A stretch of 64,000 nucleotides of DNA from a virus (taxonomy: Duplodnaviria; Caudoviricetes). The stretch covers positions 17,703 through 81,702 of the IMG/VR virus record IMGVR_UViG_3300002839_000006; one strand, 5' to 3'. Below are positions 35,082 through 63,992 of this stretch, one piece after another. A model generated the notes under the pieces. That model did no database searches. It was not told the DNA's origin and was given only the letters and a program-made list of their open reading frames with translations. The number at the start of each line of letters is the position of its first letter. Position 1 is the first letter of the stretch. A program made the position numbers and the translations under genes.

Positions 35082-35672
35082 TTAATTCTCGTCTTTTAAT
35101 ATTTTTAAATAGTTATCTTCATTAGTCCAACAAAGATCATTTAAAGGAACATTTTTTAATCTCTCATCACGTTTTTTACGCTTTTCATCATCTATAATTT
35201 TTTGTTTTTCCCACCTGTGTTGATCTTCAATAGAACTACAACTTGATTTATGACTATAATAAGATCTTATAAAAACAATTCCTTTAGAATCAACATAAGG
35301 GATATCACCTATAAAAACAACATTGAAACTTCTACCATGAACATTATTTCTGTATAAACCATCAAATGGTAAAAATCTTAAATTAGAAGATATCATTCTG
35401 TTGTATTTAGGTCTAAGAAAGAAAATTAAATATGATTCAAAGAATAGTGCTCTTTTCTTATTAACCTTTCTAATAAATATTTTATTGAAAATTTTGTTAC
35501 TTGAAATGTGATCAACAAGCCTATGATTTACTTTAAAAGTCTGACCTACATAAACTATATCTTCATCATTTACTAGTAAATAAATAAAATATTGCCCTGG
35601 ACAATCTATAAAGAATTCCTCTTTAGGGTTGATTTCAATGAATTTCTTTAAATTAATTTTACTGATGTTCAT
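35082..35672 (-). CDS. GIY-YIG nuclease-domain protein
   Basis: FIYLL...IVYVGQT...RL.DH...E..LI..L.PKYN. Confidence 0.8.
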   Translation of the reverse strand: MNISKINLKKFIEINPKEEFFIDCPGQYFIYLLVNDEDIVYVGQTFKVNHRLVDHISSNKIFNKIFIRKVNKKRALFFESYLIFFLRPKYNRMISSNLRFLPFDGLYRNNVHGRSFNVVFIGDIPYVDSKGIVFIRSYYSHKSSCSSIEDQHRWEKQKIIDDEKRKKRDERLKNVPLNDLCWTNEDNYLKILKDEN

Positions 35673-45699: not shown

Positions 45700-46464
45700 T
45701 TATATTTGATTTAAAGGATTATTAGGCGATTTGCATCTAGGACCATGATATCTTATCATATTACTAGCGTTTTTGCTTTCAAGCCCACAGTATTCACAAG
45801 TTATAACTTTTCTTCTGGTCCAAGCCTCTTTATAGCGCTGACACGCTTCGGGGCTCTTCTTTGTCCCTTTGAGAGGGTTACCAAATTCTTCAAATCTTTT
45901 TCTTTTAGATTCTTTAATCTGATCCATTTTTTCTTTTGAATGCGTTTTGCCAAAGAAAGGATTATTTTCGCCAGCAAATCTTCCCGTCATGGCATTATGT
46001 TGTTTCAACTTTGACTCTTCTGATCTGGTTGTTCCAAAGAGTGGGTTGTCTTTACCTAGTTTATGAACACCATACATGGGATTTAATTCTCCAGTTCTTC
46101 CAAACATTGGATTATTTTCCCCTGAAATATCTGGACGGTTCAATTTCATCTTTTCTTTAGAATCTTCTCTATGTTTATACCCAACTTTCTGTCCAGTGCC
46201 TTTGATATGGACATTATAACCCACTAAAGGATTAGTGCAATCTAATTCAACTTGCCAAAATTTTTCTTTACTCGATAAATCTTCATAATTGCAATATTCT
46301 AATACAATGCGGACAAAATTTTCTTTCCCTAGATCTTTAATTGCTTTTTTAAATTTAGCTCCACCGCCTAAGTATTTATCGTTTAGATTATTGGTAGAAT
46401 GATGACCAACGTATATCAACCCATTTATTAAACAAGTTACTTTATAAATAAAATGATATTTCAT
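45700..46464 (-). CDS. Free-standing GIY-YIG homing endonuclease with NUMOD3 repeats
   Basis: FIYKVT..ING.IYVG.H...YLG.G; repeated GENNP(M/F)FG..(H/R)S.E.K; C-terminal C..C...H..C. Confidence 0.88.
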
Positions 46465-51232: not shown

Positions 51233-51949
51233 TTAATAAGTTATATCGTCAAATAAGATAGAGATTCTATTCTGGAACTCTTTCAATAGAGGTCTCATCA
51301 GTTCTTGCATCTGTGGATGAGCAGCGTTGGCAGTTCTTTGTCTGAATATTTCTCTCCACTCCCGGATATTGGCTGACATATTAATCTCAGTCTTTAGAGA
51401 GTTAGGTAATACTGCTCTAGCCTGCTGAGGAGTCCAGCCAGTATTAACCATCATTTTATAAGAACTTTCACATTGATCTAATGCAACTAAAAATGAATTA
51501 AGCTTAGTGTCTTCTTTCATTTGTTCATTTGACACCATTATCTCCATTTTTGATACGTCGCAATAGTCGCCATCCCACCAGACATATTGTCCTTCTGGAA
51601 TATTTAGCCAACATGGAATGATAAAAGTAACTTCCCCATTACTGAACTTATCATCTGTATAATTGCAGAATCTTGTGCTTTCTTGAGCAAAAGAAGCTAA
51701 TCTATGCCGAACTAATTCATGTGATACGCCTCTGTCGCAGACAAATTTGACTGTAATCATTCCACCGAATTCAAGCATGGCATTATGTCCTCTAGCCATT
51801 AAAACATTCTTGATAAGTTTTTCAGCAGAACCAGGAGCTATTCTATCTTCTGACTTATAACAGGTTCTTGCTGCTAGTTCAATTTGATTCAGAATCTGTT
51901 CTCCATTAATAGGAGTGATGATCTCGAAATATGGTTTTATTAGTCTCAT
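51233..51949 (-). CDS. thyX: Flavin-dependent thymidylate synthase
   Basis: GH.A.LE, DRGVSHELVRHR.ASFAQESTR, QQAR.VLP, N.REW..I..QR, AHPQM. Confidence 0.93.
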   Translation of the reverse strand: MRLIKPYFEIITPINGEQILNQIELAARTCYKSEDRIAPGSAEKLIKNVLMARGHNAMLEFGGMITVKFVCDRGVSHELVRHRLASFAQESTRFCNYTDDKFSNGEVTFIIPCWLNIPEGQYVWWDGDYCDVSKMEIMVSNEQMKEDTKLNSFLVALDQCESSYKMMVNTGWTPQQARAVLPNSLKTEINMSANIREWREIFRQRTANAAHPQMQELMRPLLKEFQNRISILFDDITY

Positions 51950-52275
51950 TCTTTTATGTAGTAGATTGGTTTATTATAAACATCTGCTAGAGTCAATTCT
52001 CCAGCAATTCCTTGACTATTTCTAACTCTCTCCTCGCCCTGATTCTTCATTATGACTACGGCCAATTGGTCGCACCACTCGATAAATGATTCATCGAAAG
52101 TCTTCCAGTACTGCCATCCTTTGGGAAGATCTCCCGATAAAGCAATGGGATGAGTGTGCGAGATGGGAGAGAAGACGATGTGACCCTCTAGCATGAGTTC
52201 TGCTGCGATCTTATTGGCTACTGAGAAGCTCTCCTCTTCGAAGCCACTATAGGGTATTGCTAGATAGATCTTCAT
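51946..52275 (-). CDS. DUF1937 / nucleoside-deoxyribosyltransferase-like protein
   Basis: IYLA.PYS...A..L...G..VFSPISH.H...W...D..F...CD...S.G...E. Confidence 0.75.
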   Translation of the reverse strand: MKIYLAIPYSGFEEESFSVANKIAAELMLEGHIVFSPISHTHPIALSGDLPKGWQYWKTFDESFIEWCDQLAVVIMKNQGEERVRNSQGIAGELTLADVYNKPIYYIKE

Positions 52276-52595
52276 ATTCCCTCTTTCTTTGATTTGATAT
52301 AGCCAGCCATCAATATCGAGTAGTTTGCGAGGTCCAACAATGTGTCCTCGATCTTCTCGTCTGCTACGTTAAGCACGCCCTGCTGGACGAACGAATTGAC
52401 TCGAGACACCTTATCCATCATCCGAGTCAGGAAGCCCTGTTCTGCGGACGCTATACCGATATTCTCGACCAGCTTGAAATTGGCGAAACAGTCGTCCTTG
52501 CTGAAGCCAGCATAGTCGTGATTCTTGGACGCCACGATAGATTTGAGTTTATCTAAACACTCTTGGTGATAGGTTAGAAATTCTTGATTTGTCAT
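52272..52595 (-). CDS. DUF1599 / nucleotide-modification-associated domain 1 protein
   Basis: KNHDY...NF...RM.DK..R...E..EDTL.DLANY.I. Confidence 0.8.
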   Translation of the reverse strand: MTNQEFLTYHQECLDKLKSIVASKNHDYAGFSKDDCFANFKLVENIGIASAEQGFLTRMMDKVSRVNSFVQQGVLNVADEKIEDTLLDLANYSILMAGYIKSKKEGI

Positions 52596-52599
52596 ATAT

Positions 52600-55500
52600 T
52601 TATTTTAAGATTACTAATTCGCTGTTGTCCCAGAACTTGCATGCGTTCTCTTTCTTGTAGGTGTCGAGTTTGATCATCCCTGTGAGCAGTAGGATGTTGC
52701 CCTCCTGTCCTATCAGCTCGATGCCAGATTTTGTGAGCTGCTGATACTGGCAGGGAAATATAGACACCCAGATGAATGTGTAGTTGCTCTCAATCCTGAT
52801 CGAGCAGTATTTGCCACTCTTCTTGGATGTCCGCTCAATCACCTCTACTATGTAGCCGCCTATCGAGTAGTAGATGTTACTTAGCGACTCTGACTGCCAC
52901 TCATCCTGATCGAGATACTTTCCATCTGTCAGATACTTGTCGCACATAGTCTTGTAGTCGAAGAATGCTATGCCAGTCAGCCTCTTCTGCCTGAGGTCCC
53001 ACCACCAGTCATCGGAGATGTCCTTCTCGCTCAGCGTCATGAGATCCTTCTCGGCATCTATCTTAGTCTTCTTCTCAGTCCGGTAGAAGTCTATCAGTCG
53101 CTTGCGCTTGAGAGAGTCCTCTATCTCCTCGACCTTGTCGAATGCACCTGAGAATATGAGATTCTCTACATGAGTCTTGTTGACCTTGCTGCCCTTGAAA
53201 GTGTGCCTGCTCAGGAACTCCTCGAAGCTGAAATATGGTCCATTCTCATCCCTATCTTTCATGATCTGCTCAGCAGCAACTCCACCGACTGACTTGATGC
53301 TCGTGAGCGCCCAGTAGATGGTGTTCTTCTTGAAGTTCGAAGTCATATCGAACAGCGACTCATTGATGTCGGGTGGAGATATCTTTATGGCTCCAGTGGC
53401 ATGGATCTCAGATATGAAATCAGCTACCAATTCATCTTTAGCAAACTTGAATGCTGTGGTCCAGAATTCGATTGGGTGATTGACCTTAAACCACTGACTA
53501 ATATACCCAGTTATCGCATAGGCAGCCGCATGGCTGGCATTAAACCCGTAACCCGCAAACGCTTCTAGCTTATCCCAGATCTTTTCTGCAACACTTGCTT
53601 CGCATCCATTTGCTACAGCTCCCAAAACAAATTTATCATGATAGATATAGAACTGATCTCTAAACTGTTTCTTTCCCCTGCCAAGCATCACTTTTCTCAT
53701 CATGTCTGCCTCAACTAAAGTGAATCCGCCAAGTACCTGAGCAGCCCTCATTGTCTGTTCTTGGTAGATATATAGACCGTAAGTCTTTTTAGTCACACTT
53801 TCAAGCATATAGTCGTATTCAGGCTCTTTCATACCCCATTTAATCATCACAAAGTCATTGTGAGCATTAGATTTCATGGCGCCAGGACGATATAATGCAT
53901 TGGTTGCGCTGAGCTCTTCCATCGAATCAGGCTTCAATTCTTTAGTATATTTCTTCAGTCCCTGAGTCCCGAACTGGAACACATCAGAGTTCCACCCCTT
54001 TCCAAAGTACCTATATACAGCATCGTCATCTAATGGTATCTTCTTGAAGTCGATCTTTATCCCCTTGTTCTCCTCTATGAGCTTTATGCAGCTGGCGAAC
54101 TTATCCAATTGTTGAATACCTAATATATCTTCTTTTAAGAATCCTGCTTTGTCCAGCTGAATGCCCTCCCACTCGCTGACGAGCAGCTCCTCTCCATCTT
54201 TAGATAGGACCTTCTTGACTGGGAACCAGTGATAGATGTCCTTGTCTGCTGGAGTGATGATGGTGGCGCATGCATGGACTGATCCAGATCTAGGCTGCAT
54301 CAGACACAATTTAGCGTCGTGAACTATGTCTGGATTGCGCATCACAAAGTCCTTCAGTTTCTGAGACTTAGATGCAAGATGGAATATCTCAGACCAATCG
54401 GTGCCGTCCTTCTCTCCCTCTCCGAGTATGCTTGTCATCATCTTGACCTCCTGAATAGGAATGTTGCTACGTTTTGCAAGGTCTGTGAATATCATCTTCA
54501 GTTTCAGGTTGCCGTATGTCCCTACAGAGCACACCTGATCGTATCCGAATCTCTGCTCCATATAGTGCTTTACCTCATCCCTTCTCAGTCCCTCAAAGTC
54601 TGAGTCAATGTCAGGGATTGATTTCTTGACCCTATTCTCATTCAAGAACCTCTCGAACAGGAGGTCGTACTCGAATGGATCGATGTTGGTTATCCCCAAT
54701 AGGTATGCGATGAGACTTCCAGCAGATGATCCTCGGCCATATCCGACTAATATGTTCTGTTTGCCGCACCAGTCTATGATATCCCATAGGATGAGGAAGT
54801 AATCAATCAGATTCTGGCCCTTCATGATGACTGAATACTCTATCTCAATCCTGTCCAGATATTTCTCTCTGTCCTCGTCCGAGCATTTCTCATCCATCCC
54901 CTCGCCTATGAGGCCCCAGAATAGGTCTATCTTATCCTTATACTTCGTTAACTGCTCCTCTGTTAGTACATAGTCAGGCAGATAGAAGTGCTCTGTATCG
55001 ATCTGGAAGTTGCAGATCTCAGACAGTGTGTTGGCATTCTTGATGGCTTTTGATGCTATATCGTAGAACGACTCATCCTCTGTAGAGAATAACAGCTCTA
55101 ACTCTGCCAGATAGTCATCGGCGTCTTTGAAATACTGGTTGGATGACTCATACTCCCTGACTCCAGATATCCCATTCAGCGTCTTCTTTATGTGGCTGTG
55201 ATCCCTATCTAGGTAGAATGCATCGCATATGAATATCGGCTTCAGGCTGCCATCTCTGACAAACGCCTTTAGATTCAGAAGATACTCCTGATCTTTGGAC
55301 TGATCATTATATATGACAGTATCCAGCTGATAGTACTTCATGTAGCTCCTCATCCTGCCCAATTTATCATATGATCCACTCTTTGGATCTACGATCACTA
55401 TCACATCCTCCAAGAGCTCTATGAACCTATCCTCGTATATGAACTTGTTGTTGATGACATTGACCTCTTTGTTGATCATCAGTAGGTTGGTCCAGCCAGT

Positions 55501-56040
55501 CTCTGACTTTGCGAAGCACTTGATATCCTGCTTGTAATCTTCGCCCTTCCTGACGACAGTGTAAGTCGCTCCAAGTATCGGCTTGATATCGAGGTTCTTG
55601 CACTCAATCTGAAACTTGAGAGCTCCAGCCAATGTGTTCTTCTCTATGATGCCGAGAGATTTGACTCCCAAGAACTTTGCTTTAGCGCACCAGTCCTCAT
55701 AGATTCTAGAGCCATTGAGTATCTCATACGCCCCTCTGACTCCAAGAAAAGCATCAGTCTCTATCTCTCTCTTCGACTGGCCAATATATCTGAGCTCTTT
55801 GAATGTCGGTTTATCCTTGTCTGCTTTGTTTATGTAGTAGTAGTCCCCACCGAATCTAAATGCATAATTGTCGCAGTCTGTATCATCTGCTTGTAGATGC
55901 AGGTCATCATCGAATAGCCTGCCAGTGGAGTCTGGCCAGATGAACTCGAAAGTCTGATCTGCTATCTTGAACTTGCTCTTGATCTCGAGAGTCTCATAGT
56001 CCAGCTTGTTGTCCTCTAGATGTCTTATCAGTTTCTCCAT
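52600..56040 (-). CDS. dnaE: DNA polymerase III alpha subunit (phage DnaE)
   Basis: GRGSSAGSLIAYLLGIT..DP, FERFLN, PDIDSDF, K.DILG, GVFQF-like VFQFG, IYQEQ, YGFN.SHA.AY; start moved to MEKLIRH (56040). Confidence 0.95.
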   Translation of the reverse strand: MEKLIRHLEDNKLDYETLEIKSKFKIADQTFEFIWPDSTGRLFDDDLHLQADDTDCDNYAFRFGGDYYYINKADKDKPTFKELRYIGQSKREIETDAFLGVRGAYEILNGSRIYEDWCAKAKFLGVKSLGIIEKNTLAGALKFQIECKNLDIKPILGATYTVVRKGEDYKQDIKCFAKSETGWTNLLMINKEVNVINNKFIYEDRFIELLEDVIVIVDPKSGSYDKLGRMRSYMKYYQLDTVIYNDQSKDQEYLLNLKAFVRDGSLKPIFICDAFYLDRDHSHIKKTLNGISGVREYESSNQYFKDADDYLAELELLFSTEDESFYDIASKAIKNANTLSEICNFQIDTEHFYLPDYVLTEEQLTKYKDKIDLFWGLIGEGMDEKCSDEDREKYLDRIEIEYSVIMKGQNLIDYFLILWDIIDWCGKQNILVGYGRGSSAGSLIAYLLGITNIDPFEYDLLFERFLNENRVKKSIPDIDSDFEGLRRDEVKHYMEQRFGYDQVCSVGTYGNLKLKMIFTDLAKRSNIPIQEVKMMTSILGEGEKDGTDWSEIFHLASKSQKLKDFVMRNPDIVHDAKLCLMQPRSGSVHACATIITPADKDIYHWFPVKKVLSKDGEELLVSEWEGIQLDKAGFLKEDILGIQQLDKFASCIKLIEENKGIKIDFKKIPLDDDAVYRYFGKGWNSDVFQFGTQGLKKYTKELKPDSMEELSATNALYRPGAMKSNAHNDFVMIKWGMKEPEYDYMLESVTKKTYGLYIYQEQTMRAAQVLGGFTLVEADMMRKVMLGRGKKQFRDQFYIYHDKFVLGAVANGCEASVAEKIWDKLEAFAGYGFNASHAAAYAITGYISQWFKVNHPIEFWTTAFKFAKDELVADFISEIHATGAIKISPPDINESLFDMTSNFKKNTIYWALTSIKSVGGVAAEQIMKDRDENGPYFSFEEFLSRHTFKGSKVNKTHVENLIFSGAFDKVEEIEDSLKRKRLIDFYRTEKKTKIDAEKDLMTLSEKDISDDWWWDLRQKRLTGIAFFDYKTMCDKYLTDGKYLDQDEWQSESLSNIYYSIGGYIVEVIERTSKKSGKYCSIRIESNYTFIWVSIFPCQYQQLTKSGIELIGQEGNILLLTGMIKLDTYKKENACKFWDNSELVILK

Positions 56041-56041
56041 C

Positions 56042-56899
56042 CTATAGATATAGATGAAAGTTTCCAACAAATACTGCAACTCGATAATCATCAACGCCCT
56101 CAATAGCTTTTATGACTTCGAGAGACATGAGAGCGAATATCTCGCAGTCCATCTCCACTTTATCAATGTCCTGAGACCTCTGGTAGACTGTGGTGAATAG
56201 GATGTCGTCTTTGATCTGGAACTGAATAGATACTGTGCAGTTTGGCAATGGATCGCTCTGATCGAACTGAATGATCGCCTGTCGACTCGTATTGTCTCTC
56301 TCAAGTCGCTTTATGGCGTCTCTTAGAGCAGTTCTATACATGATCAACTTATCCTTCACATAGGGAAGTCTATCATCTGTGATGCGCCAGAATACGTTGG
56401 AGAAGAAATGATACGAGTGGTTCAGTATCTCTTTGACTCTACAACCAACAGTGACTCTCTCGACTCCGCATAATTCTAGATACTTTCTCATTCCCTCTAC
56501 GAACACATCTCCCGTCTCAATCTTTGAGAGATAGGATGAGATCTCTTTGTCTTCTGGCTTGACATCATTATTCCTGCATATGAAGACATCTGCTGATTCG
56601 CAAGCATAGCTCCCTAGTCCAGGATACCCTATGACTGAGTCCTTCATAACATCTACATCTTCAGTGAAAGATGCTACGAAAGCTTTTATTCTCTTTGCCT
56701 TCACATTCTGCATCCCCAAACTCTCAATCTCTCCTGCCAGAGTATTCTCATCTATGTCCCTTAAGTCATTGAGAGTAGGAAACGTCCTGAAGAACTCTCT
56801 CATCATCTTCTTGACTTGCACTCCAGTAGTCTGGTTGAGCAGGATGCAGCAGACGAGCATCTTCCATGGCTCGCGCCTGTATATGTCTTGTATCATCAT
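56042..56899 (-). CDS. Fusion of an MBD4-like HhH-GPD glycosylase (N) and a compact thymidylate-synthase-like domain (C)
   Basis: N: PWKMLVCCILLNQT...FP...LG....KAK.I...PGLG.YA..S..F...PED. C: SRQAII...PNCT...QFQI...VYQRSQD...D...GNFHLY. Confidence 0.8.
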   Translation of the reverse strand: MMIQDIYRREPWKMLVCCILLNQTTGVQVKKMMREFFRTFPTLNDLRDIDENTLAGEIESLGMQNVKAKRIKAFVASFTEDVDVMKDSVIGYPGLGSYACESADVFICRNNDVKPEDKEISSYLSKIETGDVFVEGMRKYLELCGVERVTVGCRVKEILNHSYHFFSNVFWRITDDRLPYVKDKLIMYRTALRDAIKRLERDNTSRQAIIQFDQSDPLPNCTVSIQFQIKDDILFTTVYQRSQDIDKVEMDCEIFALMSLEVIKAIEGVDDYRVAVFVGNFHLYL

Positions 56900-57780
56900 A
56901 TCTTATCACCTCCTATGTAGTATGAGCCCTTATACTTCTCGCAGTCGAGCATGAGCTCCTGCTTAGTCTTATCGTGTAATGTCCACTCATCTGTATATCC
57001 CTCGATAGCGTGATCCTCATCTCGTTTGAAGATGCAGTTTGCGGCGTACCCCTTTCTAAGATGCAGGCACTTGCCATTGTCATCGTGCGACACGAAATAG
57101 GACGCCATGTATGGGAATTTATCTACTATCAGATTCCTCATCTGCTCAGCCATGGCATTCATCTCTGGGTGCTCCTCTTGGGAGTCGGTACGCTTGCCAT
57201 AGATCGACAGTAGGGTGGGCAGAGCGACTGCTACGTATATCCAAGAAGGTATCGTCTTAGGGAGGCAGAACCTTGCGTCAGTGTTTGCTATCTCTCCAGA
57301 GTCGAGCATGTCGGCGTACAGCCTCTTTCCCTGTTGGACCCATTCTTCGTATCGTTTGAGCATGTCGGGTAGCTTGGTGAATGCCCTCGGGACAAGCACA
57401 TCTGAGTGCCTAAAATCCTTCACAGCCTGTGACTGCTGCATGTATGCTATGCCTATCCTGTTCCTGACTAGGGCGTGCGTTCCGTGCAGGGAGAGTCCCT
57501 TGACTATGAAGCAGAACTGAGGGTGCTCCATGCCCTGGCCGAGTATCTTTCCCGAGAATAGGTCATTGACCACTTCGTCCCTGTCTTCTGGAGTAGCATT
57601 GTCGTAGAAGTTCTCAAACCAAGATGCCTGGCTCATGTTCACGAATACTCGTTTCAATCTCTCTGGATCTGGCCAGTCGATCATGTCCACTTGGACTGCA
57701 GATAGGTTGTCGATGAACTTAGTCTTCGGTATCTCTCCTTGTTTAATCTCAAACATTCTCTTTATCTTCTCTATTTTCAT
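56896..57780 (-). CDS. Divergent ThyX-like flavoprotein
   Basis: MEH..F.F...G.S...TH.LVRNR.G..Y.QQSQA, DAR.CLP, R......PE...MA..M: ThyX layout with the RHR and S.R motifs altered. Confidence 0.75.
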   Translation of the reverse strand: MKIEKIKRMFEIKQGEIPKTKFIDNLSAVQVDMIDWPDPERLKRVFVNMSQASWFENFYDNATPEDRDEVVNDLFSGKILGQGMEHPQFCFIVKGLSLHGTHALVRNRIGIAYMQQSQAVKDFRHSDVLVPRAFTKLPDMLKRYEEWVQQGKRLYADMLDSGEIANTDARFCLPKTIPSWIYVAVALPTLLSIYGKRTDSQEEHPEMNAMAEQMRNLIVDKFPYMASYFVSHDDNGKCLHLRKGYAANCIFKRDEDHAIEGYTDEWTLHDKTKQELMLDCEKYKGSYYIGGDKI

Positions 57781-57782
57781 TT

Positions 57783-59024
57783 TTACTGCTGTTTTTGTTT
57801 CTCATATCTCTCTGTGACTTTCTTTGATTTCATCTCGAATAACTCAATGAACTTCTGGGGAGTTATGTCCCACATCAGGCAGATGTTGACGAAGTACTTG
57901 AACGCATCTATGAGCTCTTCGGATAATAGATCTATGTCCACCGTCTTCTTCGGCTTGTGCTGCTTGTAGTTAATCTCATTCATCACTTCGGATAGCTCTA
58001 TGATCATGGCTGTGAAGTAGTCCTTCGTGAGCGATTCCCTCTGATGAGTCTCGGTCAGGCTGTTGAAGTCCACGAAATTGGAAGTGAATCTCTTCTGCAT
58101 GTTCCAGATGTTGGACATATCGAATGATGATAGAGCCTTCTCAATGACATCCTGCTGCTTGAATGAGTGGTCCCAAGTGGCGAACCTGCCCACAAACTCC
58201 ACTCTGTTAGGAGGTATGTTATTGCTGTCAGAGAATATGAGTCCATCGATCTCGTGATAGAAGTCCAACACTGCTGCTCCAGTAGGGAGATGCTCTACGC
58301 AGTCCTCTTGAGATAGCCTCCCTGAGAACTCATATAGGAATGCGTCAGACTGGTCCCTCCTACGCTTTGATATTCTGGTGTACTTGACATCTGCGTCCAC
58401 AAAATAAGCGAGGTCGAACTTCTCTTTCGAGAGGCAATCAGGTAGCTTATCGCACAATAGGAAGGTTATCGTCTCAGATTTCAGCTCCTCGGTCCTCTGC
58501 TGGTAGTACATGCCCCAGAATGCTCTGGCGCTGATAGTCGAGACCAGCTTGTCATATTTGTATCGAGTGTCGTGAGTGATGATCTCTGTCTCAGTTATCT
58601 TGATGACCGTCTCATTTATGACCTCTACTCCCTCTCTCAGTCTGGATAGGATGTCCTGGAACGATACTTCGAAGACTGAGATGAAGTTGTCGCTGGTGCT
58701 GAGCGAGAGGTCTTTAGCGTCGAACTCAGGGTCGTTGAGCTTCTTCGATATGAACTTCTTCTTGTCCTCTATCGTGAGCTTTGTCAATATCTTGTCAGAC
58801 TTGACATATTTTATGAGCTGCGTCTTCTTTACTATTGGGAGCTTGAGGTCCTCGAGCAGCCTCTCGGTGAATGGAGTGGCGTGTAGGTAGAATATGTTCT
58901 CGAAGAATTTGTTGTTGAGCTTGCCCCCGATATCTGGGGATATGATCGTGAAATCTCTGTTGTAGTAAGCGTATATTAGGCCGCTTATGCCTGCGCCGAG
59001 GATATAGTTATCTCTCACTCTCAT
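57783..59024 (-). CDS. Fusion of an FAD-dependent oxidoreductase (Glf/amine-oxidase-like) and an all-alpha dUTPase/dCTPase-like domain
   Basis: N: ILGAGISGL...IGG, LVSTI, VGRFATW.H....DVI. C: ELSEV.NE..YKQHK...EELID..KY. Confidence 0.75.
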   Translation of the reverse strand: MRVRDNYILGAGISGLIYAYYNRDFTIISPDIGGKLNNKFFENIFYLHATPFTERLLEDLKLPIVKKTQLIKYVKSDKILTKLTIEDKKKFISKKLNDPEFDAKDLSLSTSDNFISVFEVSFQDILSRLREGVEVINETVIKITETEIITHDTRYKYDKLVSTISARAFWGMYYQQRTEELKSETITFLLCDKLPDCLSKEKFDLAYFVDADVKYTRISKRRRDQSDAFLYEFSGRLSQEDCVEHLPTGAAVLDFYHEIDGLIFSDSNNIPPNRVEFVGRFATWDHSFKQQDVIEKALSSFDMSNIWNMQKRFTSNFVDFNSLTETHQRESLTKDYFTAMIIELSEVMNEINYKQHKPKKTVDIDLLSEELIDAFKYFVNICLMWDITPQKFIELFEMKSKKVTERYEKQKQQ

Positions 59025-59325
59025 CTTTCAGAATCTTTGCTATTATGAATATTGCATAGTTTGCGCAATCGATGGCTGAGTCCAGAGCCACCTCTCTGTT
59101 GATTATCTGCTCTTGTCCGCTCTCCATGCTCATCTGGAGCTTGAATCGCTTCATCTTGTTGAGCACCTGATAGTAGAGGAACATATAGTCGTCTCCGAGA
59201 TAGGTGTCTCCATACTGATCTGCTCTATCTGCTCTGGTGATGAGCACTCTATCGAGAGCATCTAGGAACTCCTGGCCCAGTTTGGATGAGTCAGGAGTCA
59301 CCGTGATCTGATTTACTTCTGGCAT
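59008..59325 (-). CDS. Second DUF1599/Nmad1-like protein
   Basis: R..QYGD...NK.KR...E..LDS.ID.ANYAI. Confidence 0.65.
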   Translation of the reverse strand: MPEVNQITVTPDSSKLGQEFLDALDRVLITRADRADQYGDTYLGDDYMFLYYQVLNKMKRFKLQMSMESGQEQIINREVALDSAIDCANYAIFIIAKILKDESER

Positions 59326-60149
59326 TTAGATGCCTCTTTCATGAAGTGTCCCAAGCCCTCTACTTTGATGGACAGCCAGTACTTGCCCTTATCAGTCTTG
59401 ACAGATACAACTTTGCCCTTCAGCTCCTGATTAGAAGCCAGCTTGGAGTTCTTGGCAGATGTGAATGTCACATCATCGCCCTTGGCGAAAATACATGCAA
59501 GCATGTCATCTGACGATGCTGCAGGAGCTTTCTTGTCTTTGGCAATGTTCTTATCAGCCTCTTTCGTCTTGATGACTGGAGCGTCTGCTTTTGCGATCTT
59601 CATGGATGCTGGAGGCAGCGAGGTACGAGTAGATGTTTTTACTTCAATAGGGGCAACTTCTTGCTCTTCTACCTGTTCTACTTCCTGTTCTTCAACTGAT
59701 GGCTGCTCAAGGAGCTCAGCGAGCACTGCCTTCTTTGATTCTTTCTTTACTTCCTCAACTTGCTCCTGAGGAACTTCTTTCTTCTTCATATTGCTTTTAG
59801 ATTTTGCGTTCTTGTCCAATTCGACGTCCATAGTGTGGAACATCTTTACTTTTTCGCTTCCGTCCAGCAGAGCATACGCATACTGGTCGTCCTCGATTGA
59901 TTTGAATTTTGTAATTGTGCCAGGGAACCACTTGCCCCCTACCCTGAAATTTGCCCTGTCATCTGCTGCGATGATATCGCTGTTGCGATCAGTGTATTCA
60001 TCAGATGCTGGCGTTGCAGCCTGAGCTACTTTGATCTTCTCGATTAATTTAACTTTATCCATTATTCCTGTTTTTGTTATTCCTAATAGTGTTGCTTCTT
60101 TCCCCAACTGGATGGTGGTCATGTTTCTCAATTCTCTGTCAGTTCTCAT
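59313..60149 (-). CDS. Hypothetical protein with short N-terminal helical motif and two SH3-like domains
   Basis: LR.M...QL...A..LGI...K..LI; beta-rich domains separated by an E/K/A/P linker. Confidence 0.6.
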   Translation of the reverse strand: MRTDRELRNMTTIQLGKEATLLGITKTGIMDKVKLIEKIKVAQAATPASDEYTDRNSDIIAADDRANFRVGGKWFPGTITKFKSIEDDQYAYALLDGSEKVKMFHTMDVELDKNAKSKSNMKKKEVPQEQVEEVKKESKKAVLAELLEQPSVEEQEVEQVEEQEVAPIEVKTSTRTSLPPASMKIAKADAPVIKTKEADKNIAKDKKAPAASSDDMLACIFAKGDDVTFTSAKNSKLASNQELKGKVVSVKTDKGKYWLSIKVEGLGHFMKEASKCQK

Positions 60150-60228
60150 GGTTGATATCTTATAGTTGTGACTCTGTAAAAGTATAACATTTATACTTCT
60201 ATTTTACAAATGATATAAAATAAAAGTG

Positions 60229-60377: not shown

Positions 60378-61637
60378 TTATTTAATATCTCCATTCTTAT
60401 CCCACCCTTTATCTCCTTCAAGATTATTATCAGGAGTTTTGGTTTTAAGAATGTCTTGATATCTGATTTTGAATTTCTTTGCTACTTCTTTAGCTGCCTT
60501 GATACTGCATTGATTAGATGACATTGCAGCAAATGTTTTATAAAGAGATTTCTTACGATCTCTAAATTCCCTGTTAGCTTCTTCAAGTGAATTGTCTTCC
60601 TTCTTCTCTTCTACTGGTTTTACTTCTTCTTTCTTGGGTTCAGGCTTAGCTTTACTATCAGCTAATAATGCAATGAATCTTTTAACTCTTAAATCATTAT
60701 ATTTAACTCTCAACTCATCAATTTTATCTTTAGCTTTCACTCCTTCACTTGTCATAAAATAATCATAATCACTCTTAATATTTTTTGCTTTAAATTCTTT
60801 ATCTAATGCGTTAATTTTATTTAATAAAACAATTTCTTCCTTGGGAACTTCAACTTTGAATTCTTCTTCTTTCTTGGGTTCAGACTTAGCATACCTAGAC
60901 TGTTTTTCTTGAATTAATGAACGCAACATTTTTGAAGCTGAAGCATTAAGAATTGTATGTCTGGATATAGAAGTAAGGGTGTCTAAACGATATTTTAAAT
61001 CTCTATCTGAAAGTTCTGAAACTTTTTCATGTTCTGAATTATCTATAGAAGATATTAATTCCCTTTTCATATAAAATTCATCTTTCTCTTCTTTACTTTT
61101 CTCTTCCTTCTCATCAAACTTCTTCAGATAGTCTGGACTAAATGACTTTACTTCACCATCAGGAAGTTTAACTTTAATAAAAGTAGGTTGACTAATCAAA
61201 TCTGTTTTCTCTTCCCCAACTACTTCTAATGTTTTTCCTTTTAAATCAGATAAAGACACTAGATTAATATCATCGCCTAATTTAACCTTATCTCCAACTT
61301 TAAAATCATATGTAGGTTTCTCTTCAGGAGCAGTTCTAGCAGCCCAATCAATTTTCTTAGGTTCTTCTTTCTTTTCTTCAGTCTTAGGTGTTTCAGGATG
61401 ATCTTTGTCACCTTTCTTAACTCTTACCCAGTCTTTATGGCCATCGCCAGTGTCTGTCATCTTCTTCCATGTCCCGGCTGAGTTCACGTGGATCGTCCCG
61501 ATGGGAGATTTCTTAGCCTTCTCGATATCAGTCTCTACTCTCTTCACAAGATCGGGAGTGGCCTCACTGCCATAAAAAGATTTTAGTATCTCTTTCTGTT
61601 GTTCTTGTGCTTTGCGGATGTCGTCTTCTATGCTCAT
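60378..61637 (-). CDS. Head-associated family protein 4
   Basis: DIEKAKKSPIGTIHVNSAGTWKKMTDTGDGHKDWVRVK; KOW/SH3-like domain; EPKKEE linkers. Confidence 0.7.
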   Translation of the reverse strand: MSIEDDIRKAQEQQKEILKSFYGSEATPDLVKRVETDIEKAKKSPIGTIHVNSAGTWKKMTDTGDGHKDWVRVKKGDKDHPETPKTEEKKEEPKKIDWAARTAPEEKPTYDFKVGDKVKLGDDINLVSLSDLKGKTLEVVGEEKTDLISQPTFIKVKLPDGEVKSFSPDYLKKFDEKEEKSKEEKDEFYMKRELISSIDNSEHEKVSELSDRDLKYRLDTLTSISRHTILNASASKMLRSLIQEKQSRYAKSEPKKEEEFKVEVPKEEIVLLNKINALDKEFKAKNIKSDYDYFMTSEGVKAKDKIDELRVKYNDLRVKRFIALLADSKAKPEPKKEEVKPVEEKKEDNSLEEANREFRDRKKSLYKTFAAMSSNQCSIKAAKEVAKKFKIRYQDILKTKTPDNNLEGDKGWDKNGDIK

Positions 61638-62480: not shown

Positions 62481-63992
62481 TTATTTATATTTTATCAATA
62501 GTTTCTTATTCATCACATCATCAGTGAATCCTCCTATTGTTTTTCTATAATCTTCACGCCAAAAGAAAGGCATTCCTCCATCATCTCCATTAGACATTAG
62601 TTCGTAGAATTTCTTAAGCCAATTTCTTTTGTCTTCCATACTTATATCTGAATGAATTCTTACCTTACGACCTTGCTCATCTTTAGTAAACTGATTATAT
62701 TTTTTAGCAAGTAAAACTAGTCCAGAGGGTAATGCATTATGCTTAACTTCAACTTCTGACTCAGCAAGCCATTTATTAGCTAATATATCTATGTAATAAT
62801 CGCCAAGATTATCAATATCACTTGGATTTAATGAAGCGCGATATCTAGGACCATCCCCTCTATGATAACCACCCACAAGATTGTTTAATCTATTATCAAA
62901 TTTACAAGGCAAAACTTTTATTTCTCTACCTGCCTTTTTCAACGCTGCGTTAAAAGAATCTGCTTCCTTTATAGAACTTACAAAAATGCTATCAACATCA
63001 TCTATAGACAGCTTCCCATATATTTGAGCTTCCATATATGAAGAAACAGATGCTTCTGTAAATTCATCAATATTTTTAGCTTCATTTATTTTATTCCACA
63101 TATCTGAGTTAGGATCATTATTATTAATGCCCCAAATGAGTTTATCATCTACATCATTTAATTTAGTAGGGGGCGCTACAGAAGTTAAATCTATTTGACC
63201 TTTATACGAGATAGAACCATTATCATTGAACGAATCTCCCAAAGTAATACTAGTTCTATCTTTGACAGCAGATGTCTTAAATTTTACATATGCATTTCCA
63301 TAATTTCCTTCGGAGATAGGTTCATAACTCATCTCTTCTTTTGAAGAAATAAATCCGTATTTTGGAAAATTATCTGCTTCGCTTGAATTAGCTTCTGTAT
63401 CTATGCCAAAAATAAACTTCTCTTTCAGCGTTCTCTCTTCTCCAATCGTTTTAAAAGACCCTTTTCCCGTTTCAAGACTATTTTTAAATGCGTCTGATTT
63501 ATTAATAATCTCTCTAATAAGCGTTCCACTCTTAATAGCCATATAAACGGCACTGTCATTAATAAAACTTTTTAATTTTTTCTCTAAATTCTCTTTGCCT
63601 CCTAATTTATCATATAGTTCATTTTGATCTTTAAATTTTCCTTTTGATGTTTTTTGAAACATTTCTGATGTCGTCAGATTCTCCCTAGCAATATTAAAAT
63701 TTTTCGGGAAACTCTCATTCATTTTAATTTTCTCTGATTTTAATTCTGATTTTGAACACTCTTCCTTCTCTTCGATTTTAGATTCAGACTTAACTTTTTT
63801 CTCCAAAACCCAATCCTTGTGACCATTACCAGTATCAGATACTTTGACCCAAGTTCCTTGTTTATTAACGTGAATAGCTCCAATAGGAGACTTCTTTCCC
63901 TTTTCGATATCAATATTGATCGTAAACGACTTCGCGATCCACTCTCTCTGTAAATTAATACCCTCTTGAATCGATTTAAAAATATCTTCCAT
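62481..63992 (-). CDS. Head-associated family protein 5 with DUF3626-like (possible ADP-ribosyltransferase-fold) domain
   Basis: N-terminal DIEKGKKSPIGAIHVNKQGTWVKVSDTGNGHKDWVLEK; internal PKYGF...YG...F...VKDRTSIT.GDS...YMEAQIYG.L...DV..I. Confidence 0.7.
   Translation of the reverse strand: MEDIFKSIQEGINLQREWIAKSFTINIDIEKGKKSPIGAIHVNKQGTWVKVSDTGNGHKDWVLEKKVKSESKIEEKEECSKSELKSEKIKMNESFPKNFNIARENLTTSEMFQKTSKGKFKDQNELYDKLGGKENLEKKLKSFINDSAVYMAIKSGTLIREIINKSDAFKNSLETGKGSFKTIGEERTLKEKFIFGIDTEANSSEADNFPKYGFISSKEEMSYEPISEGNYGNAYVKFKTSAVKDRTSITLGDSFNDNGSISYKGQIDLTSVAPPTKLNDVDDKLIWGINNNDPNSDMWNKINEAKNIDEFTEASVSSYMEAQIYGKLSIDDVDSIFVSSIKEADSFNAALKKAGREIKVLPCKFDNRLNNLVGGYHRGDGPRYRASLNPSDIDNLGDYYIDILANKWLAESEVEVKHNALPSGLVLLAKKYNQFTKDEQGRKVRIHSDISMEDKRNWLKKFYELMSNGDDGGMPFFWREDYRKTIGGFTDDVMNKKLLIKYK

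Follow-up and report, generated by a model that had tools for sequence, protein, structure and literature searches.

A candidate pyrimidine-modification operon with a ThyX paralogue in an uncultured phage

Modified bases protect phages against restriction and CRISPR nucleases and provide DNA chemistry with new enzymes. In the T-even phages the pathway to 5-hydroxymethylcytosine (hmC) employs the dCTPase gp56, the dCMP hydroxymethylase gp42, the deoxynucleoside monophosphate (dNMP) kinase gp1, the dCMP deaminase cd, the thymidylate synthase (TS) td and glucosyltransferases. Here we consider a run of genes in 64,000 nucleotides of phage DNA (the window, bases 17703-81702 of the 81.7-kb IMG/VR virus record IMGVR_UViG_3300002839_000006, which is 74% complete). 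Its core encodes a small helical protein (P0004), a flavin adenine dinucleotide (FAD) domain fused to a MazG-type pyrophosphatase (P0002), a paralogue of the thymidylate synthase ThyX (P0003) and an MBD4-like glycosylase fused to a TS fold of only 160 residues, here termed mini-TS (P0001). Throughout, P-numbers denote proteins, L-numbers (L002-L095) the loci that were fetched and the single G-number a cellular genome. We propose, with a probability of roughly 0.55, that this core operon specifies a pre-replicative pathway whereby a C5-substituted pyrimidine takes the place of a canonical one in the phage DNA. What was established directly comprises the gene content, the domain identities, the residues of the active sites, gene order, fusions and the redundancy with canonical TS.

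The pre-replicative pyrimidine pathways in the literature consulted here rest on ThyA-family enzymes (PMC8989533, PMC13326640, PMC7824862). In a comparison of jumbo phages, classic TS and ThyX were reported to be anticorrelated, and it was suggested that MazG or CYTH enzymes may remove unmodified nucleoside triphosphates (NTPs; PMC7824862). A literature search gave no paper on a modification module with a ThyX paralogue, and the combination of genes, which the first-pass annotation of this DNA had not recognised, was found in none of the described pathways. Judged on its sequences, the module most likely belongs to the pre-replicative pyrimidine replacement type but uses new enzymes and matches no described pathway. 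If so, the ThyX paralogue, the 160-residue minimal TS fold and the fusion of a flavoprotein resembling UDP-galactopyranose mutase (UGM) to MazG would represent new enzymology.

The module resembles the T-even pathway in having an all-alpha NTP pyrophosphatase and a TS-fold protein with the catalytic Cys and an Asp at the position of N177. When the relatives are included, this pan-module also comprises a dCMP deaminase, an extra canonical TS, a kinase and glycosyltransferases of the glucosyl-hmC type. The gene set parallels known base-replacement pathways: a pyrophosphatase for the canonical nucleotide, a candidate C5-modifying enzyme for the dNMP, a kinase, a polymerase and glycosyltransferases all occur across the pan-module. 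The differences are that the TS-fold protein, at no more than 160 residues, is missing the C-terminal stretch with which ThyA closes over folate, that a DNA glycosylase is fused or adjacent to it, and that the record of the window phage carries neither kinase nor glycosyltransferase. The ThyX paralogue and the UGM-like flavoprotein, both obligatory partners in the module, have no counterpart in T-even phages.

The 5-hydroxy-dCMP synthases of RB69, DLP3 and HY126 (AfhB; PDB codes 9iqc and 9iqu; PMC13326640) resemble the mini-TS in their shortened TS fold, which retains the catalytic Cys and has a C-T motif, RSQ and, where ThyA has N177, Asp. Their systems also share flavin chemistry and the later glycosylation of the base, for which relatives of the module carry glycosyltransferases. 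The substitution D169N together with an acidic residue at L143 is the signature of these synthases (PMC13326640), but the mini-TS is without D169N, its L143 position is not acidic and it has 160 residues as opposed to 234. The RB69, DLP3 and HY126 systems contain no ThyX paralogue and no FAD::MazG fusion. The 5-hydroxymethyluracil pathway of the SPO1/phi-e type and the pathways of thymidine hypermodification (PMC8989533) share with the module a pyrophosphatase resembling dUTPase or dTTPase, a dCMP deaminase, transfer of one carbon to C5 at the mononucleotide stage, a dedicated kinase and associated HhH glycosylase-like proteins. They differ in relying on a ThyA-family dUMP hydroxymethylase, the kinase 5-HMUDK and aGPT-Pplases, none of which was detected in the module.

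The core proteins

P0003 matches the Pfam family Thy1 (PF02511) with an E-value of 8.7e-23 (81.5 bits against a cut-off of 24.8) and its profile matches ThyX structures in the PDB at 2.6e-9; a single-sequence phmmer search against the PDB gave no ThyX match. The fold is that of canonical ThyX (PDB codes 3gwc and 1o26), and R106, R108, R170 and R197 of ThyX are retained. The nucleotide loop is remodelled. The ThyX motif RHRxxSxxxxSxR(Y/F) is absent, the corresponding stretch being RNRIGIAYMQQSQAV, in which RNR...QQSQAV replaces RHR...SxR[Y/F] with an insertion of one residue. Asn stands for the His of RHR and Ser-Gln-Ala-Val for Ser-x-Arg-Tyr. The loop Arg is missing from all eight aligned paralogues, where SxR[Y/F] has become SQAV, CSGD or STAV, whereas canonical copies keep the motif, as in the other ThyX of the window (VRHRL-ASFAQESTRF) and that of M. 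tuberculosis (RHRH-FSYSQLSQRY). The Arg and Tyr lost from the paralogue are reportedly in contact with dUMP in ThyX. P0003 also has extensions of approximately 35 residues at the N-terminus and 70 residues at the C-terminus. The paralogues P0056, P0057, P0059 and P0061 (359-362 residues; L012:3-947) carry an extra C-terminal domain of about 65 residues. Among Cbastvirus-like phages P0003 is 76-83% identical, compared to 53-62% for DnaE.

In contrast to canonical ThyX, the paralogues of the core loci sit with a MazG-type gene and coexist with a canonical TS. Canonical ThyX is in the gene run of the paralogue in the window and in L011, a ThyA-like gene is present in L012, and each of the five cellular carriers has another TS candidate (canonical ThyX, ThyA, tandem ThyX or a TS::pterin-binding protein). 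Since another TS candidate coexists in three phage loci and in all of these cells, the paralogue appears not to be the housekeeping enzyme and, on this comparison of gene content, is probably not the dTMP synthase of the organism. The suggestion already made for this locus, that the additional ThyX- and TS-fold proteins serve something other than dTMP supply, is supported by the same observations. A TS-like protein of 624 residues in G005 was considered as a further mini-TS fusion and rejected; it is a TS::pterin-binding protein in a folate operon.

The N-terminal part of P0001 is a glycosylase of the MBD4 type. It matches the MBD4 glycosylase domains in the PDB (4ofa, 4evv, 1ngn) at 7.5e-10 with 23-26% sequence identity, and Pfam HhH-GPD at 2.4e-10. 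In the predicted model of P0001 (pLDDT 92) residues 1-134 align with MBD4 with a VIA Z-score of 18.3 (root mean square deviation, RMSD, 2.2 over 131 aligned residues). The HhH GxG is conserved and so is the catalytic Asp of the C-terminal P-E-D motif, VKPEDKEI aligning with VHPEDHKL. This Asp, which we take to be D560 in the numbering of human MBD4, is nearly invariant in the P0001 family. At what is presumably the position of the MBD4 Arg finger (LNR) there is Gln or Lys. An alternative placement of the catalytic Asp in a GNDS stretch, where P0001 would have Glu, was rejected; the P-E-D Asp fits the alignment ranges. Unlike MBD4, P0001 has no methyl-CpG-binding domain and is fused to a TS-fold domain.

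Residues 127-285 of P0001 align with TS-fold enzymes with Z-scores of 14.3-14.6. The best of these structures is the flavin-dependent dCMP monooxygenase of HY126 (9iqc, Z-score 14.6, RMSD 2.9 over 158 residues), in effect a tie with an ordinary ThyA (6auj, Z-score 14.3, RMSD 2.3 over 152 residues). The Pfam match, to PF00303, is to a partial TS and just exceeds the cut-off (24.8 bits against 24.3). The mini-TS keeps Cys221 (C146 in E. coli), Arg206, Gln240-Arg241-Ser242 and Asp244, and Cys221 together with Arg241, Ser242 and Asp244, the R166-S167-x-D169 motif, is invariant in 21 sequences. The invariant Asp251 aligns, with a gap of one residue, with the Asp of the dCMP-specific HY126 AfhB and is at or near the N177 position; in the mini-TS of L016 this Asp occurs exactly eight residues past the D169 equivalent, which is the N177 spacing of ThyA. 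Cys252, next to Asp251, is not conserved. The mini-TS therefore has the residue that marks dCMP-specific members of the fold, Asp for E. coli N177, as in T4 gp42, MilA and the 5-hydroxy-dCMP synthases. The two signatures of the latter are absent, with Asp244 invariant and Leu, Phe, Met or Ile at the L143 position.

The mini-TS ends two or three residues past an H-L-Y sequence and its 158 aligned residues cover approximately 210 of the target structures. Because the sequence stops there, the segment that closes over folate in ThyA is missing. Fifty-eight library representatives match the mini-TS at E-values up to 1e-10; among the matches listed most are of 150-170 residues and they are mostly stand-alone. 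The P0001 family itself is rare, with 22 clusters among 5.8 billion proteins. Scanning IMG/VR for peptide patterns of P0001 gave no match, and a search of the protein database then provided 21 relatives.

The pyrophosphatase domain of P0002 matches Pfam dUTPase_2 (PF08761) at 4.8e-6 (27.4 bits against a cut-off of 22.9). It is a four-helix domain. Its metal-binding motif ExxE...ExxD (Glu343, Glu346, Glu370 and Asp373) is conserved in at least 90% of 26 homologues, and in the GxGxxG sequence of the FAD domain Gly10, Gly12 and Gly15 are conserved in the same set. The model (pLDDT 89.9) retrieves renalase and UGM with Foldseek at 5e-12, and VIA gives Z-scores of 22.5 for the UGM 4dsg (RMSD 3.5 over 307 residues), 20.3 for PPOX and 18.5 for a bacterial UGM. 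According to the model, the N-terminal domain is a FAD Rossmann fold of the UGM/PPOX/amine-oxidase/renalase class. The scores of renalase, amine oxidases and PPOX come close to that of UGM; the domain comprises about 300 residues compared to 370-500 in UGMs, whose inserted helical and beta domains bind the UDP-sugar, and the alignment with 4dsg extends into the fused MazG helices. The P0002 family is also rare, at 27 clusters.

P0004 had been labelled Nmad1-like. The open reading frame is sound but the label is weakly supported and is best treated as a lead. No Pfam match was obtained at a threshold of 0.01, where PF07659 was looked for, and the match to phrog_1485, the PHROG of the DUF1599 gene of the window, is weak (0.0026). 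Comparison with DUF1599 clusters gave an Atlas feature score of 0.94 and a structural TM value of 0.65, and BLASTP against the DUF1599 protein of the window an E-value of 3.4. Homologues of P0004 lie directly upstream of the FAD::MazG gene in L004, L011 and L014, and in L005 and L007 with an epimerase gene in between. The same slot holds a gene for 98 residues in L016 and for 108 residues in L015, both placed by position. The DUF1599 protein of the window gave no match with phmmer against the PDB; an 83% identical copy of its gene occurs in L012.

Recurrence of the core and its relatives

The four core genes of the window are translationally coupled; they overlap or lie a few bases apart, with start/stop overlaps and short gaps. 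A helical protein of about 100 residues comes first, then FAD::MazG, the ThyX paralogue and finally the mini-TS, and about 13 independent loci repeat this order. The gene run is more than chance, because neighbouring genes overlap or abut and the core order recurs in this way. Co-occurrence in other phages had been set in advance as the test on which the proposal could fail, and it is observed. The core is found on Cbastvirus-like contigs (L004, L005/6, L007/8, L011, L012), in other phage loci (L014, from a phage with PolB, L015 and L016) and in cells, namely Patescibacteria genomes (Saccharimonadales, Shapirobacteria and another) and two small metagenome-assembled genomes labelled Gammaproteobacteria. 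Besides the phage loci named, those with the conserved order are L013/L020, L017/L019, L022, one ENA contig and L024, and on a 1.1-kb contig with a distant stand-alone mini-TS a ThyX paralogue precedes it. The pathway had been described as wrapped around the DNA polymerase. The core is indeed upstream of DnaE in the window, but the genes downstream (DUF1599, DUF1937 and canonical ThyX) are variable accessories, and elsewhere the core is beside PolB or lacks a polymerase altogether; the description is thus an overstatement.

The mini-TS stands alone in L011, L012 and L014. It is also found fused, behind the MBD4-like domain or, in L016, before a family-4 uracil-DNA glycosylase (UDG); hhalign gives 2.8e-20 for the TS part of this fusion, and the UDG part matches PDB code 4zbx at 1.6e-8. 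The glycosylase partners thus represent two unrelated uracil/thymine glycosylase folds, HhH-GPD and family-4 UDG. The functional link between glycosylase and mini-TS appears tight because the fusion recurs with both. A separate gene of the UDG family is present in L013, L014, L017 and L022.

Glycosyltransferases of two families occur among the relatives. The TAGT of L011 and the GT2 of L014 match phrog_842, the T-even glucosyl-hmC glucosyltransferase, at 2.5e-22 and 6.9e-6, respectively, and GT2 is present in Patescibacteria operons, directly identified in L017 and by position in L022. A NAD-dependent sugar epimerase/dehydratase is encoded in L005 and L007, dCMP deaminase in L007, L014 and L015, the deoxypyrimidine 5'-nucleotidase NT5C in L012, a DUF1937 homologue in L005, and trimeric dUTPase in four relatives. 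In the Patescibacteria operons a thymidylate-kinase-like gene (5.2e-11) separates the paralogue from the mini-TS, and a NUDIX gene comes last. With hhalign the mini-TS profile gave no match to the 143-residue product of these operons, which is the kinase-like one, and a weak match to the 182-residue product (E-value 6.7e-4, probability 27%).

The Patescibacteria operons (L017:6124-11832, L022:6721-12412, L013:10001-14236) are chromosomal and consist of FAD::MazG, the ThyX paralogue, the thymidylate-kinase-like gene, a divergent mini-TS, UDG and NUDIX. L017 and L022 have in addition an upstream gene for 160 residues, in L022 weakly CYTH-like, and GT2, both of which are absent from L013, where the operon is set among housekeeping genes (TrmD, S16). 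The cellular DNA of these carriers may be modified; should the proposal be correct, some Patescibacteria possibly modify their own DNA in like manner.

Among 50,697 phage records on deposit, no relative was identified by megablast with the region or by tblastn with P0001 and P0002, and P0003 retrieved canonical ThyX only, at no more than 28% identity. There is no known cultured carrier of the module. The ThyX paralogue family amounts to 70 protein clusters, and a scan of IMG/VR with the pattern of the remodelled loop returned 71 loci. The upstream sequence was usable in 65; a MazG-type gene precedes the paralogue on the same strand in 48 of these (directly adjacent in 30), and 11 have an MBD4-like gene. 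A remodelled ThyX loop beside a MazG gene would serve as a signature of the pathway in metagenomes, if the proposal holds, and a family of distinct function would be hidden among the 'ThyX' annotations of viromes.

A large distant clade (L029-L095) and the Patescibacteria copies have the loop Q-C-[TS]-G-D, in which Cys replaces the Ser of ThyX. Several contigs of this clade exceed 100 kb. In L065 (2416-7406), the only distant-clade locus annotated, a MazG::NT5C fusion is directly upstream of the paralogue and a Nuc_deoxyrib_tr gene directly after it. This 115-kb contig also encodes DnaK, DnaJ, DnaE, and MBD4-like and Fpg-type glycosylases.

Proposed pathway and alternatives

The pathway we envisage would begin with hydrolysis of a canonical pyrimidine deoxynucleoside triphosphate (dNTP) to the dNMP by the MazG-type domain, which would both remove the competitor and feed the pathway. 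The ThyX paralogue would then use reduced flavin and methylene-tetrahydrofolate to transfer a one-carbon unit to C5, while the Cys-bearing mini-TS held and activated the pyrimidine, giving a dNMP of the 5-hydroxymethyl type (or 5-methyl). The product could be re-phosphorylated by a host enzyme or, in other lineages, by the operon-encoded thymidylate-kinase-like enzyme, for incorporation by the co-transferred DnaE. In some relatives TAGT or GT2 enzymes would glycosylate the base in DNA, and the fused or neighbouring uracil/thymine-DNA glycosylase would remove unmodified or deaminated bases. The FAD domain may keep the flavin reduced or perform a further step. The two synthase-like proteins appear to have complementary losses, in that the ThyX paralogue is without the nucleotide loop and the mini-TS without the C-terminus that closes over folate. 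It is a tentative and rather doubtful extension that the two form a composite flavin/folate enzyme, in which the mini-TS Cys activates and the ThyX flavin delivers the carbon, that this is present in many uncultured phages and Patescibacteria, and that Patescibacteria chromosomal DNA carries a glycosylated C5-modified pyrimidine. This would be the first case in which a ThyX-type enzyme leads to a modified base in DNA. A complex prediction for the pair returned a score of 0.00, which gives no verdict and was used neither way.

The first-pass annotation favoured dCMP as the substrate, and the evidence divides. A cytosine-derived base is slightly ahead; in its favour are the Asp that the mini-TS has for N177, the resemblance of the gene set, with its extra canonical TS, to that of T4, MBD4-type repair and the hmC-type glycosyltransferases. 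Uracil is favoured by the dUTPase_2 match, the thymidylate-kinase-like gene, dCMP deaminase, the retained ThyX arginines and the uracil-type glycosylases, and also by the neighbours of the paralogue in the distant clade, the MazG::NT5C fusion and the nucleoside deoxyribosyltransferase-like gene.

Several points weigh against a base-replacement pathway. The modified base is deduced from the genes, and nearly every part could also be mapped onto ordinary dTTP synthesis with uracil exclusion. No kinase or glycosyltransferase had been seen in the window, and the whole 81.7-kb record, itself 74% complete, likewise has no glycosyltransferase (phrog_842, TAGT or GT2), thymidylate kinase or dCMP deaminase, although relatives carry both kinase and glycosyltransferase; a complete pathway like that of T4, with dNMP kinase and DNA glycosyltransferase in one genome, is thus not found in this phage record. 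With a hydrophobic residue for L143 and with D169 kept, the mini-TS departs from the hydroxymethylase and hydroxylase signatures (PMC13326640). The proposal leaves unassigned which protein, ThyX paralogue or mini-TS, installs the group and whether the two form a complex, and it does not account for the roles of the FAD domain and the Nmad1-like protein.

Could the module simply supply thymidylate and exclude uracil, with no modified base involved? MazG would then be a dUTPase, the paralogue a variant dTMP synthase with the FAD domain perhaps its flavin reductase, and the TMP kinase and a UDG or MBD4-like enzyme that removes uracil would complete the set. We judge this unlikely, even though dUTPase_2 is the best Pfam match of the pyrophosphatase, the ThyX fold with R170 and R197 is retained, relatives carry the thymidylate-kinase-like gene, dCMP deaminase and UDG family proteins, and family-4 UDG and MBD4 both excise uracil. 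Such a module would duplicate the canonical ThyX or ThyA in the operon, the trimeric dUTPase of four relatives and the separate TS in every cellular carrier. Moreover, the paralogue has lost both its SxR[Y/F] loop and the RHR His, and the mini-TS with Asp for N177, the hmC-type glycosyltransferases and the sugar epimerase would be left unexplained. Replacement of thymine as in SPO1 would be a uracil-derived variant of the pathway proposed here, in which 5-hydroxymethyluracil would be made by a flavin route with MazG as dTTPase or dUTPase, the paralogue as dUMP hydroxymethylase and the kinase acting on hydroxymethyl-dUMP. The canonical ThyX or ThyA of the same operon would produce competing dTMP, the mini-TS Asp points to cytosine and MBD4-type enzymes are the classic repair for deaminated 5-methylcytosine and hmC. 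We consider this variant improbable. In its favour, the pyrophosphatase is of the dUTPase_2 type, NT5C occurs in L012 and, fused to MazG, immediately before the paralogue in the distant clade, three loci have dCMP deaminase, a thymidylate-kinase-like gene is present and dUMP is the ancestral ThyX substrate.

A 5-hydroxy-pyrimidine pathway as in RB69, DLP3 and HY126 would make the mini-TS a flavin-dependent dCMP 5-hydroxylase, supplied with reduced flavin by the neighbouring flavoproteins, with the 5-OH group glycosylated in some lineages. The top TS-fold structural match, 9iqc, is the HY126 enzyme, with which the mini-TS shares the local motifs P-C-T, IRD..LYT, RSQ and Asp. The operon has two flavoproteins, one with a UGM-like fold, and RL38JI has a UGM in a 5-hydroxycytosine glycosylation cluster (PMC13326640). 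We nonetheless think this quite improbable. The 9iqc score is tied with that of an ordinary ThyA, D169N is absent with Asp244 invariant, the L143 position is hydrophobic and the highly conserved ThyX paralogue is left without a part to play. In addition, Patescibacteria and peat samples are among the carriers, and chemistry that depends on O2 would be less likely there. Lastly, chance juxtaposition or an assembly chimera might be suspected from the foreign GC content of 51950-60150, with sharp steps at both ends. The island is not a chimera, since contigs of three runs span both borders at even depth, and the same gene order in many independent contigs further refutes the idea; it is scarcely credible.

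Genomic setting

The features are listed in Table 1. All eight genes reported by the first-pass annotation are intact minus-strand open reading frames with the domains it named, apart from the label of P0004 discussed above, and the genes of the window are on the minus strand throughout. Window DNA is contained, as contigs, in peat metagenome runs. Judged by DnaE (41% identity), the named phages closest to this one belong to Cbastvirus and have Flavobacteriia as hosts (Cellulophaga phiST and phi13:1, Tenacibaculum Larrie).

Table 1. Features of the gene run, with positions in the window
Feature	Position	Strand	Remarks
P0005, 278 residues	59313..60149	-	Low-complexity; first gene of the GC-rich island; pathway membership uncertain
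P0004, 105 residues, small helical DUF1599/Nmad1-like	59008..59325	-	Conserved core member
P0002, 413 residues, FAD domain (about 1-300) :: MazG/dimeric-dUTPase-type all-alpha NTP pyrophosphatase (about 300-413)	57783..59024	-	
P0003, 294 residues, ThyX paralogue	56896..57780	-	Remodelled nucleotide loop
P0001, 285 residues, MBD4-like HhH-GPD glycosylase (1-125) :: 160-residue mini-TS fold	56042..56899	-	
DnaE, replicative polymerase alpha subunit (PHP, NTPase, finger, HHH)	52600..56040	-	Open reading frame 52600-56103
DUF1599 (Nmad1), 107 residues	52272..52595	-	Variable accessory; Pfam 1.3e-5, just above cut-off; phrog_1485 2.7e-15
DUF1937/nucleoside 2-deoxyribosyltransferase-like, 109 residues	51946..52275	-	Variable accessory; 5.4e-12; phrog_355 2.6e-12
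Canonical ThyX, 238 residues	51233..51949	-	Presumed ordinary dTMP synthase; Thy1 3.3e-37
Compositional island of 8.2 kb, P0005 to DUF1937 including DnaE	51950..60150	.	45.3% GC (GC3 46-66%) versus 34.3% GC (GC3 23-35%) for the phage

The DUF1937-like gene is the last of the GC-rich island. Canonical ThyX, just outside, has the GC fraction of the background (0.367) as opposed to 0.43-0.49 for the island genes, and relatives of the window phage show no such contrast. The foreign GC content common to the core module and DnaE suggests, from composition, that the two were acquired together, probably from a relative of higher GC content. The start codon of DnaE is probably the ATG at 56040, two bases past the stop of P0001, because relatives align only from residue 22 of the longer reading frame. 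The window DnaE is a single uninterrupted gene of 1146 residues. The DnaE of relatives is split in two and/or intein-bearing, with Intein_splicing matches (L004:10856-16373, L007:12094-16374, L012:3378-8486). In phi13:1 (L002 4195-6860) the slot directly upstream of DnaE contains 7-deazaguanine genes, namely QueD, QueE, GTP cyclohydrolase I and a MazG-like pyrophosphatase, and for this reason the slot looks like a site for DNA-modification cassettes.

Relatives of P0005 have a weak Rho_N/SAP-like N-terminus and a conserved C-terminus of 60 residues (67% identical in L004). The flanking genes form a replication and recombination module of NAD ligase, SNF2 helicase, DUF932, RecA, an SbcD-like phosphoesterase and GIY-YIG endonucleases. 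Homing-endonuclease-like genes of the GIY-YIG (NUMOD3) type are at 45700-46464 and 35082-35672 of the window, one of them between recA and an SbcC-like gene. On the other side of the island a protein of 503 residues (62481-63992), with a sub-threshold match to DUF3626 (2.8e-5, 23.7 bits against a cut-off of 27), and its neighbour of 419 residues (60378-61637) have no homologue in the related loci, and both genes have the low GC content of the phage background.

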